Of a DNA stretch of 64,000 bases, positions 7,807 through 53,115 are shown one piece after another. The position numbers and the translations under genes are program-made. A model generated the notes under the pieces. That model did not search any database. It saw only the letters and a program-made list of their open reading frames with translations, and was not told the DNA's origin. The stretch's first letter is position 1. Each line of letters starts with the position of its first letter. The DNA is from an uncultured Candidatus Actinomarina sp. (GTDB lineage Bacteria; Actinomycetota; Acidimicrobiia; Actinomarinales; Actinomarinaceae), in the NCBI GenBank assembly GCA_902555985.1, contig CACDUI010000001.1, positions 67,291 to 131,290 of the forward strand. The letters are read 5' to 3'.

Positions 7807-7902
7807 ATGGGATCTTTGATTAAAAAAAGACGTAAAAAAATGTCAAAACATAAATATCGTAAACGTCGTAAATCAAATAGACATAAGAAGAAAAGCGTTT
7901 AA
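7807..7902 (+). CDS. Ribosomal protein bS22-like (31 aa, Lys/Arg-rich); missed by the >=60-aa ORF track
   Basis: ATG GGA TCT TTG ATT AAA AAA AGA CGT ... TAA encodes MGSLIKKRRKKMSKHKYRKRRKSNRHKKKSV. This closely resembles mycobacterial bS22 (MGSVIKKRRKRMSKKKHRK...). A purine-rich stretch (AGGAAAAAAGGAAA) lies about 10 nt upstream. The stop abuts the next gene. Confidence 0.7.
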   Translation: MGSLIKKRRKKMSKHKYRKRRKSNRHKKKSV

Positions 7903-8794: not shown

Positions 8795-10876
8795 TTAGAG
8801 TTTTCTTGAAGAGTTGATGACAACAGAAATGCTTGAAAGGGCCATTGCTAATGCAGCTAAATTAGGCGTAATGATACCTATTACTGCAATAGGTATCATT
8901 AAAGTGTTGTAAATAAATGCGAGAAAAAGGTTTTGATATATTCTAAGTTTTGACTTTTTAGATAATTTAAATATTTTATTTATAGTTTCTAAACCACCCT
9001 TGTGAATTAAAATATCTCCAGAAACTTGTGCTATCTGACTACTTGAAGAAGTAGTCACACCAACATCCGCTTGCTTGATAGAAGGTGAATCATTAATCCC
9101 ATCACCGATAAAAATAACTTGATTGCTTTTTTGCTTATTTTTTATAAACTCTAATTTTTCTTCAGGGTTTTTACCAGAGTGGTATTCATCTATGTTATGA
9201 TTTTCAGCAAATTTTTTAACATTAATTTGTTTATCACCTGAGAGAATTATGATTTCTTTTTTTGACTTAAGTTCACCTAAAAAATCTGTTGAAACAGAGG
9301 ATTCTTCTTCCAAGTAAATAATATAGATTTTCTCATCGATTGTAATCTTCAAAGAGGATTCTTTTGACTCATTATTTTTTTGAATCTTAATATTTTGTCC
9401 TTCAACAACTCCTTCAATACCAACACCTGATTCTTCTTTTACGTCCTGGGCTGAAAGCAGAGTTATTTCTCTTACTTCAGCTTGATAAACTATACTTCTT
9501 GCTATTGGATGTTGTGAGAAATTTTCAACACTTGCAACTAATTGCAAGAACATTTCTTCAGGTATGCCTTCTACAGGCATTTCTATTTTTGATATTCTAA
9601 AAATTCCAGACGAAAGCGTTCCTGTTTTATCGAAGATCATTGTGTTAATATCGCCAAACTTTTGTAATATATCAAAATTCTTAAAAAGAAATCCACTTAT
9701 TTTACTTTTTGTTGCTGTTTTAAATAAAACAATTGGTGTCGCAAGACCCAATGCACATGGACATGCAATTACAAGAACAGCAATTGAATTTTTTAATGCT
9801 TCTATTAAAACAATGTCTTGAATGAAATATTTATATAAAAATGTACTAAAACTTATAAGTAAGACAGTTGGTACAAAAAATTGTGTTATTTTGTCTAGGG
9901 ACTTTTGAATTTCTGGTTTTGTGCCTTGAGCCTTCCTTATCAAATCTTCAATGATGTTGTATGTTGATTTTTGGTAAGATTCTTTAACTTCAACTTCAAG
10001 ACTTCCTTGCAAGTTGATGCTTCCACCAACTACTTTGTCACCCATGTTTTTTGGCAAGGGAATGGACTCGCCAGTTAATAAGCTTTCGTCAACTGTTGTT
10101 TCTCCCCTGATAACTTCCCCATCAACAGGAATAAGCTGACCTGCAAGAACCGTAAATACATCTTTGATTTGAACATCTTTTGTAGGTATTTCGATATTTT
10201 CACCACTTCTTTTAACAATTAGTGTTTTAGGCATTCTACTTTTAATCGATTCAGAAGTTTTTACAGACTCTTCAATAACCTTGTCTTCAACTGACTTTCC
10301 AATAAGTAAAAATGAAATAATAAATGCCCCAGTATCTAGAAACATTTTGTTTTCTCCTGCTGATGAAACTAGCTGAGCAGGCAAAATAGAAATCAGTAGA
10401 GAGCTCAAGCTCCCCAAGGAGATTAATGTGTCCATGTTAAAATCGAAACTTTTAATTTTCTTATAGGCAGAAATATGAAAATTTCTTCCTAAATAAAGGA
10501 CAACAAAAAAACCTACAACATAGGCTAAGCCGTCATAACCTGTTTCAAAAAGATACTTCAGCGACAAAGTCATTAATAAAGAAATTATCGGTAAAAGTAA
10601 CTTAAGTTTTATTTTTTTATCTTCAACCTCACCTGATGCTTCTTTAGCTTTATACCCTATTTTGTTCACAGATTTGATAATTTCTTCTAGGCTATTGTTC
10701 TCGTCTGAAATGTCAACAATTGCAGATTTTAGAGGAAAGCTTACAGATGCATCAAGAACATTTTCATTTTTGGAAAGAATGCGTTCAATACGTGCTGCAC
10801 AAGCAGCACAAGTCATACCATCAATATCAAGATTTATTGATTTAACTTGGCTGGACAACTGTGTAACCTTGTTCAT
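8795..10876 (-). CDS. copA: Copper-translocating P1B-type ATPase
   Basis: N-terminal HMA domain (GMTCAACAARIE), CPC transmembrane metal site (ACPCALG), DKTGTLS phosphorylation motif and GDGINDSP hinge. Confidence 0.9.
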   Translation of the reverse strand: MNKVTQLSSQVKSINLDIDGMTCAACAARIERILSKNENVLDASVSFPLKSAIVDISDENNSLEEIIKSVNKIGYKAKEASGEVEDKKIKLKLLLPIISLLMTLSLKYLFETGYDGLAYVVGFFVVLYLGRNFHISAYKKIKSFDFNMDTLISLGSLSSLLISILPAQLVSSAGENKMFLDTGAFIISFLLIGKSVEDKVIEESVKTSESIKSRMPKTLIVKRSGENIEIPTKDVQIKDVFTVLAGQLIPVDGEVIRGETTVDESLLTGESIPLPKNMGDKVVGGSINLQGSLEVEVKESYQKSTYNIIEDLIRKAQGTKPEIQKSLDKITQFFVPTVLLISFSTFLYKYFIQDIVLIEALKNSIAVLVIACPCALGLATPIVLFKTATKSKISGFLFKNFDILQKFGDINTMIFDKTGTLSSGIFRISKIEMPVEGIPEEMFLQLVASVENFSQHPIARSIVYQAEVREITLLSAQDVKEESGVGIEGVVEGQNIKIQKNNESKESSLKITIDEKIYIIYLEEESSVSTDFLGELKSKKEIIILSGDKQINVKKFAENHNIDEYHSGKNPEEKLEFIKNKQKSNQVIFIGDGINDSPSIKQADVGVTTSSSSQIAQVSGDILIHKGGLETINKIFKLSKKSKLRIYQNLFLAFIYNTLMIPIAVIGIITPNLAALAMALSSISVVINSSRKL

Positions 10877-11051
10877 CTAACATCTCGGATATGAGAGATA
10901 GGTCTAAATCACTAGTAGATTTTACATCTACTGATTTTTGGTCAATATCTACAGTCACACTTAATACAGACTCAATACTGCCAACAGTTGACTCAATAGT
11001 TTCTTTACAATGTCCACAGCTAATTTCAGGTACAGTAAATTTTGTTTCCAT
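10842..11051 (-). CDS. copZ: Copper chaperone CopZ (HMA domain)
   Basis: 69 aa with a CGHC metal-binding motif in a ferredoxin-like HMA fold. The 3' end overlaps the copA start. Confidence 0.75.
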   Translation of the reverse strand: METKFTVPEISCGHCKETIESTVGSIESVLSVTVDIDQKSVDVKSTSDLDLSLISEMLDEQGYTVVQPS

Positions 11052-11153: not shown

Positions 11154-11348
11154 TTAAGCTGTTTCTTGGAGAATTCTGCCTCTTACTCGCGGGTATTTTA
11201 CCGGAGCATGGTTGAAGCAATGATCTCTTTTGTTATAAATACTAAGTTGAGTACTGCAAGATTCATCTTTACATACTCTGCCCTGGTCAAAACTTTTTGA
11301 TGGTCTAATACCACCTTTTATTTGACTAGCCTTTAATCCGTCTGTCAT
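11154..11348 (-). CDS. Small conserved Cys/His protein, paralog 1 (C-x4-C-x12-C-x2-H zinc-ribbon-like)
   Basis: 64 aa. About 55% identical to the 67-aa ORF at 35631..35834, with a shared block RVC..D.C....S.YNK...CF.HAPV.YPRVRG. Basic N-terminus. Confidence 0.55.
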   Translation of the reverse strand: MTDGLKASQIKGGIRPSKSFDQGRVCKDESCSTQLSIYNKRDHCFNHAPVKYPRVRGRILQETA

Positions 11349-13312: not shown

Positions 13313-13349
13313 TTAACTCCTTTAACTTTTTATATGATAGTATTTAGTT

Positions 13350-13586
13350 ATGGAAATCAAACTTGAATTTTGTGTAGTTTGAAACTACACACCTCGTGCA
13401 GTTGGCACGATAGAAGATGTCTTAGAAATTTACGGTAATAAAGTTACCAATATTCAATTGATTCCAAGTGGTGGTGGAGTATTTGAATTTCATTTAAATG
13501 AAAAATTAATATTTTCAAAAAAAGAACTAGAAAGACACTCAGAAGATGGGGAAATTCTTAAATTAATTGAAGAAGAACTTGGTTGA
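13350..13586 (+). CDS. SelW/Rdx-family selenoprotein (78 aa) with in-frame UGA = Sec at 13380..13382 (CxxU)
   Basis: The frame reads MEIKLEFCVV-U-NYTPRAVGTIEDVLEIYGNKVTNIQLIPSGGGVFEFHLNEKLIFSKKELERHSEDGEILKLIEEELG. Both the CVVU redox motif and the LIPSGGGVFEF block are Rdx/SelW hallmarks. A hairpin tCGTGC-AGTTG-GCACGa lies at 13392..13408, 9 nt after the UGA (a candidate bacterial SECIS). Without recoding the ORF would be only 10 codons. Confidence 0.7.
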
Positions 13587-14317
13587 ACTTACCGTTTGAT
13601 TTAACTCTATTTGAAGTAATTTTTATTGCACTATTGCTTTTTATTGGCTCTGCAGTCCAAGGCGTTTTGGGTTTTGGGTTTGCTGTTATCGCTTCACCAA
13701 TAATTGTTCAAATTGAACCTAATCTTGTACCACAGCTGCTTGCGTTACTTGGTTTACCACTTGCTTTGAGAGTTTTTTACAGAGAAAAAGATGAAGTTGA
13801 TTTATCTAAAGTAAGGCCACTTATTTTAGGTCGGTTAATAGGAGGACCACTTGGACTCTTGTTCTTATTAAACTTATCTGAGAAATATTTATCAATTTCC
13901 GTAGGGCTTATTGTTTTCATAGCAGGTGCAGGTTCTTTTTTTGGTTGGGAAATAAATAGAAATAATTTAAATTCGTTTTTTGCAGGTACTTTTTCTGGTA
14001 TTTTTGGAATGATTGCAGCAATTGGTGGCCCTCCAGTAGCTTTGCTTTATAGAAATACTAAATCTCAGGAATTTAGGCCATCCCTTAATAGTGTATTTAG
14101 TATAGGTATTTTGATTACATTGTCTCTTTTAGTATTTAGTGGGAATCTTTTTCTTGACCACCTACTTTTATTTTTGTTATTTCTTCCAGTTGTTTTGATT
14201 GGAATTCGAGTTTCTAGCTCTCTTTTCTCTAAAGCCTCAGATCGTTTTATTGCACAGTCAGTAACTTATTTTTCAATTATTTCTGGTCTTTATGTTATTT
14301 TGAGAAACATAAATTAG
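13583..14317 (+). CDS. TSUP (TauE/SafE, DUF81) family membrane transporter
   Basis: 244 aa with two repeated 4-TM halves containing Gly-rich GxGGG-type segments. An apparent TTG start overlaps the selenoprotein stop (TTGA), so the true start is uncertain. Confidence 0.65.
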   Translation: MNLPFDLTLFEVIFIALLLFIGSAVQGVLGFGFAVIASPIIVQIEPNLVPQLLALLGLPLALRVFYREKDEVDLSKVRPLILGRLIGGPLGLLFLLNLSEKYLSISVGLIVFIAGAGSFFGWEINRNNLNSFFAGTFSGIFGMIAAIGGPPVALLYRNTKSQEFRPSLNSVFSIGILITLSLLVFSGNLFLDHLLLFLLFLPVVLIGIRVSSSLFSKASDRFIAQSVTYFSIISGLYVILRNIN

Positions 14318-29013: not shown

Positions 29014-30694
29014 CGAATTGCAACAGCTCTCTCAGGACTTTTTTCAAAACTCTCTAGATTCTTCTCCCACATCAGCAATCATGAGAGGACACAAGCAATA
29101 TTTTGATCAAATAGAAGAGATGACCGATGAAACTTTTGAAAAAGAAACAAAAAAAGTAAATGATTTTATTTCAAGGCTTGAGAGCATAAACGCAGAATCT
29201 TTATCGAACAGAGAAAAAGTTACTCATGGAATGTTGGAGTTTGCTTTAAGTTCTAACAAAGATTCTTTGTTAGACAGGAGTTGGGAGTTTGGAGCCGGTG
29301 TCTCTGGCTTCACAGGATTTCTTATTGACTATAACCAGCAAATGTTTGTTCCAGATTCAGAATCTGCTGATATGTTGTTAAAAAGACTTGAACTTTATAA
29401 AAGACTTTATACACAGATCGCAGAGGTACAAAAAATCGGCTTAAACAACAACAGGGTAGCTACAGAACGAAATTTACTCAGAACAATTGATCAATTGGAA
29501 AATTACTTGGGTTCATCGCTGGAAGAAGATCCATTATTACTAATTAATTTTTCACCAGAAATTTCAGAATCTTTTATATCTGATTGGAAAGAAAAAGCTA
29601 AAAAAATTATAGATGTAAACATAAGGCCTACAGTATTAACTTATTTAGATCAATTAAAAACAGAACACATTCCTAAAGGACGTACAGATGAGCATTCTGG
29701 AATAATGTGGATTGAAGGTGGGGAAGAGACGTACTTAAGAGCATTAAGAAAATACACAGGCCATAAAGATATAACTGTACAAGAAGTTCATAACGTAGGA
29801 CTTTCTGAAATAGGTAGGCTAAAAAAAGAATTTTTTGAGATTGGAGAAAATGTATTTCCTGGAGTCAGTACTCCAGAAGAAGTCTTACAAAAAATGCAAA
29901 CAGAGCCCTCAATGAGATATGAAAGCAAAGAGCAGATGTTACAGTTAGCTGTTGATACTATTGAACGAGCCTATAAGCCTTTAGAAGAGTGGTTTACAGT
30001 ATTTCCAAAATCTCCTTGCAAGGTCTTGCCAGTTCCAGCTGAGTCTGAACAGCATGCTCCACCTGCATATTATTACCCACCTTTACCTGATGGTTCAAGG
30101 GATGGGACATATTTTCTTAACACTTACAAAGCAGAAGCAAAAAGTATTTTTGAAGCAGAATCTGTAGCTTTTCATGAGGCGATACCAGGTCATCACCTTG
30201 ATAGAACTATTGCAGTTGAGCTACAAGATGTACCAGACTTTCAAAAGTATGTAGCTTCAACAGCATTTGTTGAGGGCTGGGGACTTTATTCAGAGCAATT
30301 AGCTAATGAAATGGGCCTTTATTCCAATGATGTTCAACAGCTAGGAAGACTTGGAAATGATGCATGGAGAGCTTGTCGTCTTGTTCTTGATACAGGCATG
30401 CATGGAATGGGCTGGTCAAGAGACAAAGCAATTAAGTTTTTCAAAGCAAATTCGCCAATTGAAGCTATAAATGCAGAAATTGAGACCGACAGATATATTG
30501 CCTGGCCTGGACAAGCATGTTCATATAAAATGGGCCAATTGAAGATTGAAGAACTACGAAGAAAAGCTGAAAATGAACTAGGTGATAAGTTTGATATTAG
30601 GTATTTTCATGATGAAGTCTTATGCGATGGGGGAATAACGCTTCCAATTTTAGAAAATAAGATTGATACATTTATTGAAAAGCATAAAAGCTAA
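29003..30694 (+). CDS. DUF885-family protein (putative metallopeptidase-like)
   Basis: 563 aa. HEAIPGHH motif and an overall layout typical of DUF885. Confidence 0.65.
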   Translation: MTNNELQQLSQDFFQNSLDSSPTSAIMRGHKQYFDQIEEMTDETFEKETKKVNDFISRLESINAESLSNREKVTHGMLEFALSSNKDSLLDRSWEFGAGVSGFTGFLIDYNQQMFVPDSESADMLLKRLELYKRLYTQIAEVQKIGLNNNRVATERNLLRTIDQLENYLGSSLEEDPLLLINFSPEISESFISDWKEKAKKIIDVNIRPTVLTYLDQLKTEHIPKGRTDEHSGIMWIEGGEETYLRALRKYTGHKDITVQEVHNVGLSEIGRLKKEFFEIGENVFPGVSTPEEVLQKMQTEPSMRYESKEQMLQLAVDTIERAYKPLEEWFTVFPKSPCKVLPVPAESEQHAPPAYYYPPLPDGSRDGTYFLNTYKAEAKSIFEAESVAFHEAIPGHHLDRTIAVELQDVPDFQKYVASTAFVEGWGLYSEQLANEMGLYSNDVQQLGRLGNDAWRACRLVLDTGMHGMGWSRDKAIKFFKANSPIEAINAEIETDRYIAWPGQACSYKMGQLKIEELRRKAENELGDKFDIRYFHDEVLCDGGITLPILENKIDTFIEKHKS

Positions 30695-31836
30695 ACAAAA
30701 AGATAAGTAAGTTTTCTCCAGAACCATTCAAGCGGACCATATCTCCACTTATCTAAAATTGGTTTTGACCAGTATATTTGCAACCCCCAAATAATGACTA
30801 TATACAGAACTAATTGAGACCTTGAAAAAGTTCCAATTCCAAATAAACCACTAAGCACAAATACACCAAGCAATGTTTGAGTTATATAGTTTGTAAATGC
30901 CATCTTCCCACATGCACGTAATCTAGTTGAAATATTTTCTCTGAGTTTTATATTCATGATTGTTAGCAATCCAACATAACCAAGCACCATTGGCATTACT
31001 GAGAGGGTAAGCCATAGCTTACTTGTAACTGCAATTGCAGCGCTATATTCAGATGAAATAAGTAAATAAATACTATAAATTGAAAAAGGCAAACCTATGC
31101 CAAATCCGCAAAACATCAATTTTTTATAAAAATTAAGCTCTCTAGTTCCTTGAATTATGTTCAATCTGTACAGTAAAATTCCCACAATCATTAAAGTCAT
31201 TGCTCTATTGCCGCCATCTAAAATAAATAAAAGTCCAAATATATTTCCCCACTCAGATTCTTGAGGAAACCAAAACTTTCCTAAATTTAAAGAACCGCCT
31301 TCACTTGCAGCAACCACCCAGGCTTCTTCTAAAATTAAATTTCCAGAAGGATCATATAAAGAACCAACATAATTTATGAGCAAAAGGTCTATAAAAACTA
31401 AAAATGTGATAGAAAATATTATTATTTTATTATTTTGGACCTGAGGAAATAAAATAATAAAAAAAGCACATGAAGCATAAGTTATGAGAATATCTCCTTC
31501 CCAAATTGACAAATGAGCAATGCCAAATATAAGTAATAAAAAGTTTCTCCAAAAAGATAGCAATTTAGGCCTTTTAACTTTTGGTTTTGCATTATCAAGA
31601 AAAATCATAAGGCCAACACCAAAAAGCATAGAAAATAAGCCCATCATTTTATATTCAAAAAATACTGAAGAGATCACGATAACAACCCAATCTAATAAGT
31701 TCTCCGCACCATAAGTAGAGTGATTAAATAGAGCTGTAACAGGCAAGCCAAATGATATTACATTTATTATAAGGATTCCAAGAACAGCAAAGCCCCTGAT
31801 AAAGTCAAGGTTTGTAATTCTTTGAGAAGAATTCAT
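30691..31836 (-). CDS. YeiB-like membrane protein (DUF418)
   Basis: N-terminus RITNLDFIRGFAVLGILIINV matches the YeiB family start. About 10 TM helices. Confidence 0.55.
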   Translation of the reverse strand: MNSSQRITNLDFIRGFAVLGILIINVISFGLPVTALFNHSTYGAENLLDWVVIVISSVFFEYKMMGLFSMLFGVGLMIFLDNAKPKVKRPKLLSFWRNFLLLIFGIAHLSIWEGDILITYASCAFFIILFPQVQNNKIIIFSITFLVFIDLLLINYVGSLYDPSGNLILEEAWVVAASEGGSLNLGKFWFPQESEWGNIFGLLFILDGGNRAMTLMIVGILLYRLNIIQGTRELNFYKKLMFCGFGIGLPFSIYSIYLLISSEYSAAIAVTSKLWLTLSVMPMVLGYVGLLTIMNIKLRENISTRLRACGKMAFTNYITQTLLGVFVLSGLFGIGTFSRSQLVLYIVIIWGLQIYWSKPILDKWRYGPLEWFWRKLTYLFV

Positions 31837-31840
31837 TCAA

Positions 31841-35630: not shown

Positions 35631-35834
35631 TTATGAGATAGGTTCTTGTTCTCTTGGTAAATGGCCTCTTACTCTTGGGTAGGAGACAGGTGCATGAAGA
35701 AAACAAAATTTCTTTTTGTTGTATACACTTATTACTGTTTCACAAGCATCAAATGCGCATACACGACCTGTAGTGTATTTTTTTGACCTTCTAACACCAG
35801 GCTTAACTTGAGATGCAGTTAATGTTCCGCTCAT
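35631..35834 (-). CDS. Small conserved Cys/His protein, paralog 2. First gene of the dnaK operon, ending 30 bp upstream of the dnaK start
   Basis: 67 aa, MSGTLTASQVKPGVRRSKKYTTGRVCAFDACETVISVYNKKKFCFLHAPVSYPRVRGHLPREQEPIS. Shares the C-x4-C-x12-C-x2-H block with the ORF at 11154..11348. Confidence 0.55.
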   Translation of the reverse strand: MSGTLTASQVKPGVRRSKKYTTGRVCAFDACETVISVYNKKKFCFLHAPVSYPRVRGHLPREQEPIS

Positions 35835-42715: not shown

Positions 42716-43540
42716 GTGTATTTTATAAATGAGGAAGAGGTTAAGAAAGAGGATTTTCACTTACCAGTTGAAAATTTAGCTGTATGGAGAGGTGACGGAG
42801 TTTTTGAAGCTCTAAGAATACATGATCGTTACCCTTTTGGTATAGAAAAGCATATTGATAGGCTAAAGCAGTCTTGTAGAAAGCAGTTATTTGAAAATGT
42901 TGATTTCAGTCTTATTGAGAATAATATTTCAAAAATTGCATCACAGTATGAAAATGGCTACGTCAGAATTCTTATTTTGAGAAATGATTCTGATGAAGAT
43001 TTTACGATTTATTCTTTTTATCAATTACCAATTAAAATATCAGAAAATTATAAATTAGAATCTCAACCTGCTCCCTGGCATCCTGGGGGAGATTTTGATG
43101 TTAATAGTGATAACATTGTAGGGTCTAAATCAACTTCATATGCATATAATATTAAGCAAACAAGAGATGCTATTAGGAATGGGTTTAGTGACGCACTACT
43201 CCTTAGCAGCAAAGGGGTAGTTCTTGAGGGCCCCACCTTCTCAGTGGGATGGATTAAAGATGAGGTAGTATACGTTCCAGATCTAGATTTGGGAATACTC
43301 GACTCAATCACTAGGAAATACTTGCTTGAATTTGGAAGTGCAAATAAAATCAATACAGCAGTATCCAGAGTCACTATAGATGAGTTATATACGGTAGATA
43401 CAGTTTTTGCTATGTCAACTGCCAAACACGGAATATTTGTATCTAAAATTGATGACAAAGAGTACACACAGTCGCCTCTATTGAACACTATTCAAGATTT
43501 ATTCAAGAAAGAAGTTTTAAAGGAAAAACAAGAAAGTTAA
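42716..43540 (+). CDS. Class IV (fold-type IV) PLP aminotransferase-family protein (BCAT/ADC-lyase-like)
   Basis: 274 aa. Domain order and the GSKSTSYAYN Lys region fit the fold-type IV family. Confidence 0.6.
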   Translation: MYFINEEEVKKEDFHLPVENLAVWRGDGVFEALRIHDRYPFGIEKHIDRLKQSCRKQLFENVDFSLIENNISKIASQYENGYVRILILRNDSDEDFTIYSFYQLPIKISENYKLESQPAPWHPGGDFDVNSDNIVGSKSTSYAYNIKQTRDAIRNGFSDALLLSSKGVVLEGPTFSVGWIKDEVVYVPDLDLGILDSITRKYLLEFGSANKINTAVSRVTIDELYTVDTVFAMSTAKHGIFVSKIDDKEYTQSPLLNTIQDLFKKEVLKEKQES

Positions 43541-43550
43541 GGAGGGTAAA

Positions 43551-44579
43551 GTGAGACTTACAGAGTATTCTCATGGCTCAGGTTGAGCATGTAAACTCTC
43601 CCAAGGAGAGCTTGCTCAGGTTCTGAAGCAATTACAACAAAATAATCACAGCAATCCTGAAATTTTAGTAGGACTAGATAACCCTGATGACGGTGCAGTT
43701 ATTGATTTGGGTAATAATTTAAAAATAGTTCAAACTGTAGATTTTTTTACACCTATCCTAGACGACCCTTATGACTGGGGGAGAGTTGCTGCTGCTAATG
43801 CATTGTCTGATATATATGCCATGGGTGGAGTGCCTATTTCCTCACTTCAGTTAGTAAGTTGGCCAAGAGAAGATATTGGATTTGATATCTTATCAAGTGT
43901 AATTAATGGCGGTTCAGATGTAATGAAATCAGCAAACTGCAGCATTGTAGGCGGGCATAGTATTGATGATAAAGAACCAAAATATGGCTTTGCTGTGACA
44001 GGGATAATCAATGAAAAAATATATAAAAAAACTGATATTAAAAAAGGGGATAGACTCTTTTTGACCAAACCACTCGGCTCAGGAATAATTGCAACAGCAA
44101 TCAAAAAAGGTAAAGCCGAAAAAGAAGCTATAAGTCAAGTTACAGAGATTATGACAACATTAAATGACAGAGGTCTAGCAGTAGCCAAAAATCTAAATGC
44201 TAATGCTGTTACAGATGTGACCGGTTTTGGACTCTTAGGGCATTTAAGCGAAATGTTAATCAATGATAATTTGTCAGCAAATTTAATTTTTGACGACATT
44301 CCAATAATTGAGTATGCAAAAAAATATTTTGAGGAGGGTATCTACCCATCTGGAAGTCAAAGAAACTTTAATAGTTTGAAAGATTTCATAACATTTGAAA
44401 ATGAAGACGAAGCATTAATATTATCTGATGCTCAAACTAGCGGAGGACTTTTAATTGCAGCTCCTAAAGAAACAAATGTAGATTTTAGCGAAATTGAAAA
44501 ATCACATGGGGTAACAATAAAAGAAATTGGGAATATAACTGATAGATATAATAAAAAAATAAATATTATTAGTAATTGA
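43551..44579 (+). CDS. selD: Selenophosphate synthetase SelD, itself a selenoprotein: in-frame UGA (43584..43586) at the catalytic SGxACK position
   Basis: GTG start at 43551, 5 nt after AAGGAGGG. Translation VRLTEYSHGSG-U-ACKLSQGELAQVL... continues in frame into the ORF-track protein (43707 onward), giving full-length SelD with its glycine-rich loop and AIR-synthase-like domains. Hairpin CUCUCC-CAA-GGAGAG lies at 43596..43610, 9 nt after the UGA (a candidate SECIS). Confidence 0.85.
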
Positions 44580-52810: not shown

Positions 52811-52971
52811 ACCAAATTTTACCCCGCTATTTTTTACCAGTCCATTTAAAAGTAATTTTAGATATTTTTTACTATCCTCTGATTGTGGATCAAAAAAGAT
52901 ACCCAGTTCAGAAAAAACAGTGAGTCTGCCCTAAGTGCGAATCTACTAGTTTTTCAGAAGACACTGTTACG

Positions 52972-53115
52972 ATGACAGGCAAAACTTGGTCACGTTTTAT
53001 GAATATTCAAAATCGAAAATTTATAGCAATCACTTGTTCAAATTGCCAATATACAGAGTTCTATAAAGGTACATCTAAGGGTTGGGAAAGCGTCATTGAT
53101 TTTCTAGGAAATTAG
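52972..53115 (+). CDS. Possible small ORF (47 aa, one CxxC), hypothetical
   Basis: MTGKTWSRFMNIQNRKFIAITCSNCQYTEFYKGTSKGWESVIDFLGN, in a 333-bp gap between two minus-strand genes. No RBS and no homology recognised. Confidence 0.2.
   Translation: MTGKTWSRFMNIQNRKFIAITCSNCQYTEFYKGTSKGWESVIDFLGN

Follow-up and report, generated by a model that had tools for sequence, protein, structure and literature searches.

The selD gene of an uncultured Candidatus Actinomarina sp., encoding selenide, water dikinase, is very probably itself a selenoprotein gene, with an in-frame UGA at the catalytic position of the N-terminal loop of its product. The gene lies on a stretch of 64,000 nucleotides (GenBank assembly GCA_902555985.1, contig CACDUI010000001.1, positions 67,291 to 131,290 of the forward strand), referred to here as the window and numbered from its first letter. 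An initial annotation of this DNA had proposed that selD encodes selenocysteine (Sec) at the catalytic loop and is hidden from open reading frame (ORF) calling based on stop codons, a proposal supported both by alignment to SelD of known structure and by conservation of the TGA throughout the order. That Actinomarina possesses a Sec-containing SelD is correct but already known, having been reported in April 2026 in the bioRxiv preprint ‘Actinomarina, resolved’ by Nielsen and Lui (10.64898/2026.04.03.716425). The new element relative to the preprint is a covariation-supported candidate for the Sec insertion sequence (SECIS) of selD, a hairpin termed H2 below.

Identity and extent of the selD gene

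The features of the selD region are as follows.
43539 to 43546, plus strand: Shine-Dalgarno sequence AAGGAGGG, 4 nt 5' of the selD GTG.
43551 to 44579, plus strand: full-length selD, selenide, water dikinase, with matches to TIGR00476, NF002098 and 3U0O.
43584 to 43586, plus strand: in-frame UGA, predicted Sec12, the catalytic residue equivalent to E. coli Cys17, from the 3U0O alignment and conservation.
43707 to 44579, plus strand: 290-aa ORF with a TTG start and without the catalytic loop, an artefact of stop-to-stop ORF calling.

Read from the GTG at 43551-43553, selD comprises 342 codons including Sec12 and ends at the TGA at 44577-44579, where the sequence reads TGA TGA TAA; the TGA at 43584-43586 (codon 12) is the sole in-frame stop before this end. 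The N-terminus as translated is VRLTEYSHGSG-U-ACKLSQGELAQVL. The GTG, the internal TGA and the AAGGAGGG Shine-Dalgarno sequence had all been placed at these coordinates in the initial annotation and were verified in the sequence, as was its remark that the ORF list starts SelD at the TTG at 43707 and so loses the N-terminal loop. The Shine-Dalgarno sequence overlaps the TAA stop (43538-43540) of a class-IV aminotransferase gene upstream of selD, and GGAGG-like motifs were found at the corresponding site in relatives. All relatives keep the 52 codons 5' of the TTG at the protein level.

With U written as C, the 342-aa product matched TIGR00476 with 379.3 bits (cutoff 125) and NF002098 with 361.5 bits (cutoff 299). 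The family-profile match spans residues 1-337 and thus includes the part 5' of the TGA. Among solved structures the best match was E. coli SelD (3U0O; E = 5e-79, residues 1-330), and in the residue-level alignment to this protein U12 pairs with Cys17 and K15 with Lys20, placing position 12 at the U/C site of the family, where the initial annotation had expected it. Judged by these profile and structure matches, the product of 43551-44579 is unambiguously SelD, N-terminus included; selenophosphate synthesis by this protein is predicted from family membership.

Conservation of the in-frame TGA

Species-representative genomes of GTDB were scanned with peptide patterns taken from other parts of SelD, so that the scan was blind to the Sec/Cys site. 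The scan gave eight loci from Candidatus Actinomarina and Actinomarinales single-amplified genomes (SAGs) and metagenome-assembled genomes (MAGs), with 58-95% identity, and all eight carry TGA at codon 12. A metagenome scan contributed 80 further selD loci. Across the low-GC loci, which comprise the window and 56 relatives with 56-95% identity (42 distinct sequences) and come from independent SAGs, MAGs and metagenomes, codon 12 is TGA in 57 of 57. Distant high-GC SelDs (41-45% identity) have TGA in 24 of 32 cases and TGC or TGT in the other eight, and it was solely among these that Cys forms were seen in the census. By this count the conservation of the in-frame TGA is far beyond chance, and the sampled loci suggest that the whole order, and not half of its genomes, has Sec-SelD.

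The codons that precede the TGA evolve as coding sequence. Seven of codons 2-11 change only synonymously among the 42 distinct low-GC sequences, Leu3 being written with five different codons, and the remaining three change conservatively (E/Q, Y/F and S/A); third codon positions near the invariant TGA vary freely. The start codon is ATG in 37 of the 42 and GTG in five. We take the codons 5' of the TGA to be translated in frame with the rest of selD, because the variation there is synonymous or conservative and the TGA is invariant. The gene thereby combines the marks of a selenoprotein gene, namely a conserved in-frame UGA, Cys at the same position in homologues, and coding signal on both sides of the UGA.

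Hairpins downstream of the UGA

Two hairpins lie within the coding sequence shortly after the UGA.
43596 to 43610, plus strand: H1, the hairpin CUCUCC-CAA-GGAGAG of the initial annotation, at +13 to +27 from the UGA and beginning 9 nt after it.
43612 to 43631, plus strand: H2, UUGC-UCAG-[GUU]-CUGA-(A)-GCAA, the proposed SelB-binding SECIS core, at +29 to +48 from the UGA.

Three structures were compared: H1, H2, and a lower stem of the minimum free energy (MFE) fold that pairs the UGA with +30 to +36. For the covariation scores, 35 distinct marine sequences and the distant locus L056 were aligned without gaps, and the SelD tree was built leaving out the residues encoded by H1 and H2. The distant high-GC SelDs (L059-L089) fold differently and were used only for the Sec/Cys census and for comparison of G37 and U38. 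At 20 nt, the H2 motif is too poor in information for a covariance-model search to be meaningful.

In the alignment of 36 sequences, H2 is paired in 91.7% of cells overall and in 143 of 144 cells of the upper four pairs. It shows 24 double-change cells, a number reached by none of 500 shuffles, and has a covariation score of 0.225 vs 0.091. Pair 33:43 is UA in 27 sequences, AU in eight and GC in one, while pair 36:40 is GC in 20, AU in 15 and unpaired in one; the SelD tree shows one U-A to A-U switch at 33:43 and, at 36:40, no fewer than two independent switches from G-C to A-U. When each marine sequence was folded alone from +13, H2 was predicted in 35 of 35, and L056 keeps the hairpin with a stem that is wholly re-coded (GGCGCAG-GUU-CUGCGCC).

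The triloop of H2 occupies 43620-43622 (G37, U38, N39), and a bulged A lies at 43627. Every Sec form has G37 and U38; at this site the Cys forms carry AUU, AUA or GGG. In the 3' arm, U41 and G42 are supplied by Leu25, which is encoded by CUG or UUG in 42 of 42 sequences, vs a YUG share of 15.9% among the Leu codons of the window. The MFE of H2 alone is -5.4 kcal/mol (-4.2 to -6.2 in relatives), and 0.9% of background windows fold as well; H1 and H2 together reach -12.8 to -13.5 kcal/mol.

The lower stem of the MFE fold (UUGAGCA with UGCUCAG), in which the UGA itself is paired, was rejected. It is paired in 89.3% of cells, shows no compensation (0 double-change cells), and breaks at column 43, where H2 is compensated.

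As a separate observation, the high-GC, soil-type SelD group L059-L089 mixes Sec (24) and Cys (8) forms. Its Cys forms keep an upstream GCUCAGCCCGGUGGAGC hairpin, while the Val-GUN codon at +37 has become Ile-AUN, with loss of G37, a pattern that fits what Zhang et al. 2006 described, a Sec-to-Cys conversion with remnants of the SECIS left behind.

A second putative selenoprotein gene in the window

The window carries a second gene with an in-frame UGA and a hairpin behind it.
13350 to 13586, plus strand: 78-aa SelW/Rdx-like selenoprotein gene with a CVVU motif (PF10262), predicted UGA-Sec at 13380-13382.
13394 to 13410, plus strand: putative SECIS hairpin of the SelW-like gene, UCGUGC-[AGUUG]-GCACGA, at +15 to +31 with GU at +22/+23.

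This ORF sits in a gap between called genes (13313-13582), begins MEIKLEFCVVU and has its real stop at the TGA at 13584-13586. Its product matches the Rdx family PF10262 with 57 bits (cutoff 22.6) and has C-V-V-U at residues 8-11, the features by which Rdx/SelW members are recognised. Relatives of the locus were fetched through homologues of the adjacent TauE gene with 60-82% identity (L090-L094); all five contain this 78-aa gene (at about 9768-10004), codon 11 again being TGA, and in two of them gene callers had annotated a truncated Rdx fragment. The hairpin has an MFE of -7.7 kcal/mol, which none of 9141 background windows equals, and is paired in 36 of 36 cells in six sequences, its basal pair being CG in three, UA in two and GC in one. 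The apical GUU is common to this hairpin and to H2 of selD.

A 78-aa selenoprotein family, the most abundant one in Actinomarina, was called uncharacterized in the preprint (10.64898/2026.04.03.716425). The SelW/Rdx-like protein of the window appears to be this family, by matching length and the presence of Sec only, and its predicted SelW/Rdx-like identity is an incremental point over the preprint.

Directly downstream lies the gene of a TauE/SafE-family membrane protein (13583-14317, plus strand), 244 aa in all homologues. The TGA stop of the SelW-like gene and the TTG start of the TauE gene overlap (TTGA), a hint that the two genes are translationally coupled. The TauE-like family K07090 is listed among the predicted Actinomarina selenoproteins (10.64898/2026.04.03.716425); the TauE ORF in the window is complete, with no internal TGA.

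Selenocysteine machinery

Neither the 64-kb window nor about 215 kb of 13 related loci (L001-L008, L090-L094) contained a tRNA gene, and neither SelA nor SelB was found among all window ORFs of at least 400 aa. This is consistent with the expectation of the initial annotation that selA, selB and tRNA-Sec are located outside the window, and the lack of tRNA genes fits the preprint's account, in which the tRNA genes of Actinomarina are grouped elsewhere on the chromosome, around a hypervariable region (10.64898/2026.04.03.716425). According to the same preprint, selC, selA, selD and a divergent selB are present in all 84 complete Actinomarina genomes, YbbB is absent, and each genome has about five predicted selenoproteins, including SelD (10.64898/2026.04.03.716425).

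Assignment of the SECIS element

The published model of bacterial SECIS elements (bSECIS) describes an apical loop of 3-9 nt on an upper stem of 4-16 bp, a G in the first two loop positions that is usually followed by G or U, a UGA-to-apical-loop distance of 16-37 nt and an MFE of -7.5 kcal/mol or lower (PMC13188914). H2, with its GUN triloop, a stem of 4 bp, a 1-nt bulge and a further 4 bp, a G37 and U38 that are invariant in 36 of 36 aligned sequences, and a distance of 33 nt, agrees with this model in everything except energy (-5.4 vs -7.5 kcal/mol). H1 departs from it in its loop (CAA, whose first two positions lack a G), narrowly in its spacing (15 nt) and in its energy (-6.9 vs -7.5 kcal/mol). 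The hairpin of the SelW-like gene conforms to the model throughout. Neither H2, given its position at +29 to +48 and the lack of a 5' bulged U, nor the SelW-like hairpin, which also has no bulged U, corresponds to the minimal SECIS of the E. coli type.

The initial annotation had taken H1 for the SECIS. The existence, sequence and 9-nt offset of this hairpin were confirmed, while its proposed role was not, given that it violates the published loop and spacing rules, is poorly conserved and has a better candidate beside it. For H1 to be the SelB-binding element after all, H2 would have to be conserved for its protein sequence, for mRNA stability or for a similar reason, which we consider unlikely. 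H1 starts at +13, near the position of both the E. coli minimal SECIS (PMC8659212) and the SelW-like SECIS (both +15 to +31), and it is exceptionally stable for this DNA, its MFE being equalled by 0.01% of 15-nt windows in the 64-kb, 33%-GC window. An H1-like hairpin was predicted in 33 of the 35 marine sequences when each was folded alone from +13, one of its pairs shows a U-A to G-C change, and in this clade H1 is not a chance feature. However, H1 is paired in only 75.9% of cells, with its inner pairs mostly broken, and its seven double-change cells do not differ from the shuffles, being matched by 152 of 500. Its register shifts by 1-2 nt between clades, its loop varies (ACCAA, CACAAAA, CCA or CUA in relatives) with no conserved base, and in the L007/L048 clade the hairpin shrinks to 3-4 bp or vanishes (it is missing from the MFE folds of L007 and L048) despite the TGA being kept there. 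We therefore lean, with some reservation, towards H2 rather than H1 as the SECIS core; the main reason for assigning SelB binding to H2 is that the two selenoprotein genes of the window share the apical GUU. H1 is probably an accessory or spacer element and not the SelB-binding loop.

In the mechanism that we propose for selD, translation would begin at the GTG at 43551, and the UGA at 43584-43586 would be recoded to Sec by SelB and Sec-tRNA(Sec) under the direction of an RNA structure within the coding sequence. In the glycine-rich loop at the N-terminus, Sec would thus take the catalytic position (Cys17 in E. coli), with Lys15 (Lys20 in E. coli) beside it. H2 (43612-43631), in which the invariant G-U opens the GUN triloop, is the most likely SelB-binding element, and H1 (43596-43610), located between the UGA and H2, would probably be accessory or serve as a spacer. 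The resulting SelD is expected to make the selenophosphate required for producing both SelD itself and other selenoproteins, among them the SelW-like protein encoded at 13350-13586.

The G-U of selD lies 15 nt further from the UGA than that of the SelW-like gene, and H1 is exactly 15 nt long. That H1 acts as a spacer is speculation on our part. A more elaborate version, which we put forward tentatively and consider doubtful, is that selD in Actinomarinales has a SECIS variant made of two hairpins, in which a GU hairpin 33 nt from the UGA is recognised by SelB, H1 is a distance-compensating or pausing module, and one SelB serves two very different linear spacings.

Alternatives to selenocysteine insertion

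Other explanations of the TGA fare much worse. A single in-frame stop in one assembly could be a sequencing error, as the TGA at 52921 of a zinc-ribbon ORF (see below) appears to be, with TGG in relatives, or it could be a pseudogenising mutation that leaves selD broken or truncated. For selD this is next to impossible, however, as the TGA stands at the same codon in all 57 low-GC loci and in 24 distant high-GC SelDs, the 11 codons 5' of it are under in-frame purifying selection, and the Shine-Dalgarno sequence and start are conserved. We give equally little credence to a genome-wide reassignment of UGA, which would make residue 12 Trp (code 4) or Gly (code 25): the genome is small and AT-rich (33% GC), as in some recoded lineages, but TGA terminates seven of the 55 long ORFs of the window, including selD and the SelW-like gene, the long ORFs are intact under table 11, and homologues have Cys, never Trp or Gly, at position 12. 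With TGA a normal stop and conserved at codon 12, sequencing error, pseudogene and genome-wide reassignment are therefore excluded for practical purposes. One of the two outcomes that the initial annotation had named as fatal to its proposal, a Cys codon in close relatives together with signs of an error or a pseudogene, did not occur, Cys being confined to distant SelDs. Slightly less remote, and still very improbable, is that the UGA is read through without a Sec system, by a near-cognate tRNA that inserts Trp or Cys, or that the product starts at the TTG at 43707. No stop codon is leakier than UGA, and evidence of the Sec machinery comes only from the preprint. Yet a SelD starting at the TTG, without the loop bearing Cys/Sec17 and Lys20, would lose the residues that define the active site (PMC13188914), and Sec-free readthrough is at odds with the conserved GU-loop hairpin after the UGA, with the presence of another CxxU selenoprotein gene that has a canonical SECIS, and with the complete Actinomarina genomes reported to carry selA, selB and selC (10.64898/2026.04.03.716425).

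Recoding of the selD UGA as Sec, with H2 as the SECIS, is thus preferred, and several points weigh against it. Sec insertion is itself deduced from the comparison of sequences, and the presence of selA, selB and tRNA-Sec rests on one preprint (10.64898/2026.04.03.716425). H2 alone is weak, its -5.4 kcal/mol lying above the bSECIS threshold of -7.5 kcal/mol, and its GU-bearing loop, 33 nt from the UGA, lies 16 nt beyond the loop of the SelW-like hairpin of this genome, a spacing remote from the fixed one of 11 nt required in E. coli (PMC8659212). Rfam, searched over the window at gathering thresholds and over 43450-43750 at permissive E-values, gave neither a SECIS match nor any other relevant one. 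Finally, the covariation in H2 rests on a handful of evolutionary events among related sequences, and the conserved peptide LAQVL could account for part of its conservation.

Rejected candidates and other genes in the window

Two further in-frame TGA codons were considered and rejected. The zinc-ribbon ORF at 52885-53115 (plus strand; VDQKRYPVQKKQ-TGA-VCPKCEST...CSNCQYTEFY) has its TGA at 52921-52923 (codon 13), where Trp (TGG) is encoded in the four relatives L002-L005, and the TGA is not followed by any SECIS-like hairpin; rather than a Sec codon, this TGA is a sequencing error, a leaky stop or a nonsense mutation, and it serves as an internal negative control for the conservation test. An N-terminal Sec extension of the minus-strand ORF at 30691-31836 through the TGA at 31837-31839 was discarded as well, the ORF having a normal ATG directly after the TGA and the upstream frame being non-coding-like.

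Outside the selenoprotein genes, two paralogous small ORFs on the minus strand (11154-11348 and 35631-35834; 64 and 67 aa) have in common the pattern GRVC..(E/D).C......YN.....CF.HAPV.YPRVRG. One of them adjoins CopZ/CopA genes and the other sits upstream of dnaK; a 64-aa counterpart, with no Pfam match, occurs at the syntenic position in L090-L094. The CopZ-like metallochaperone (10842-11051, minus strand) has a CGHC motif and lies upstream of a CopA-type P-type ATPase gene (8795-10876, minus strand). NCBIfam has Sec (UxxU) versions of this chaperone family; the copy in the window is a Cys form. A highly basic ORF of 31 aa at 7807-7902 (plus strand; MGSLIKKRRKKMSKHKYRKRRKSNRHKKKSV), too short for most ORF callers, presumably resembles the small actinobacterial ribosomal protein bS22.

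Implications for annotation

In genomes and MAGs of Actinomarinales, selD is routinely cut to about 290 aa with loss of the active site, while the SelW-like gene is either shortened or overlooked; both ought to be annotated as selenoprotein genes. The findings also bear out that the costly Sec system is retained in one of the smallest marine bacteria that live freely, as the preprint had already stated (10.64898/2026.04.03.716425). The lineage-specific candidate SECIS with a GUN loop, seen in two genes, could become a search model for more selenoproteins in these ocean bacteria, and it raises the question of what UGA-to-SECIS spacing a single SelB tolerates.

Comparison with known selenoproteins and SECIS elements

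The closest comparison is the Actinomarina SelD of the preprint, which concerns the same genus, gene and protein, a family described as ‘MRLT*’ of 342-346 aa (K01008) with Sec in place of the active-site Cys (10.64898/2026.04.03.716425). Two differences stand out. Sec-SelD was inferred there in about half of the genomes, whereas TGA was found here in 57 of 57 low-GC loci; we speculate that the lower estimate may have missed genes with a GTG start. Moreover, the Rfam SECIS models failed on the Actinomarina selenoprotein genes and yielded no SECIS in the preprint, whereas a conserved hairpin with a GU triloop was found here (10.64898/2026.04.03.716425).

The E. coli fdhF SECIS offers both likenesses and differences. 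As in fdhF, the small apical loop of H2 opens with G-U, and the SelW-like hairpin lies at exactly +15 to +31, with GU at +22/+23. We take the apex of the fdhF SECIS to be CAGGUCUG, which the H2 apex CAG-GUU-CUG would then resemble. Unlike in fdhF, H2 carries its GU at +37/+38, some 14 nt farther from the UGA, with H1 occupying the canonical position, and H2 has no 5' bulged U, most sequences having instead a 3' bulged A or C. The minimal fdhF SECIS is a hairpin of nt 15-31, 11 nt from the UGA, with a bulged U17 and with G23 and U24 in the loop (PMC8659212).

At the protein level, E. coli SelD (3U0O) and the SelD of 2YYE/2ZOD belong to the same fold family as the SelD of the window (E = 5e-79 and 2e-66, respectively), and the motif SHG(A/S)G-[C/U]-(G/A)CK, Lys included, is common to all three. 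The protein of 2YYE/2ZOD is, we assume, that of Aquifex aeolicus, natively a Sec form and crystallised as a Cys mutant. E. coli SelD uses Cys, and its identity to the SelD of the window is only moderate.

Among bacterial selenoprotein families, SelD ranks second in how widely it occurs (PMC1794560, PMC13188914), and every Sec-decoding organism without FdhA was found to have a Sec-SelD (Zhang et al. 2006, PMC1794560). The preprint credits Guimaraes et al. 1996 with the first description of a Sec-containing bacterial SelD (10.64898/2026.04.03.716425). Like bacterial Sec-SelDs in general, the protein described here would have its Sec in a flexible loop near the N-terminus, where E. coli SelD has Cys17, and its synthesis would need its own product. 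It differs from other Sec-SelDs in its host, a streamlined marine photoheterotroph with a genome of about 1.1 Mb, and in its candidate SECIS, the sequence of which is lineage-specific.

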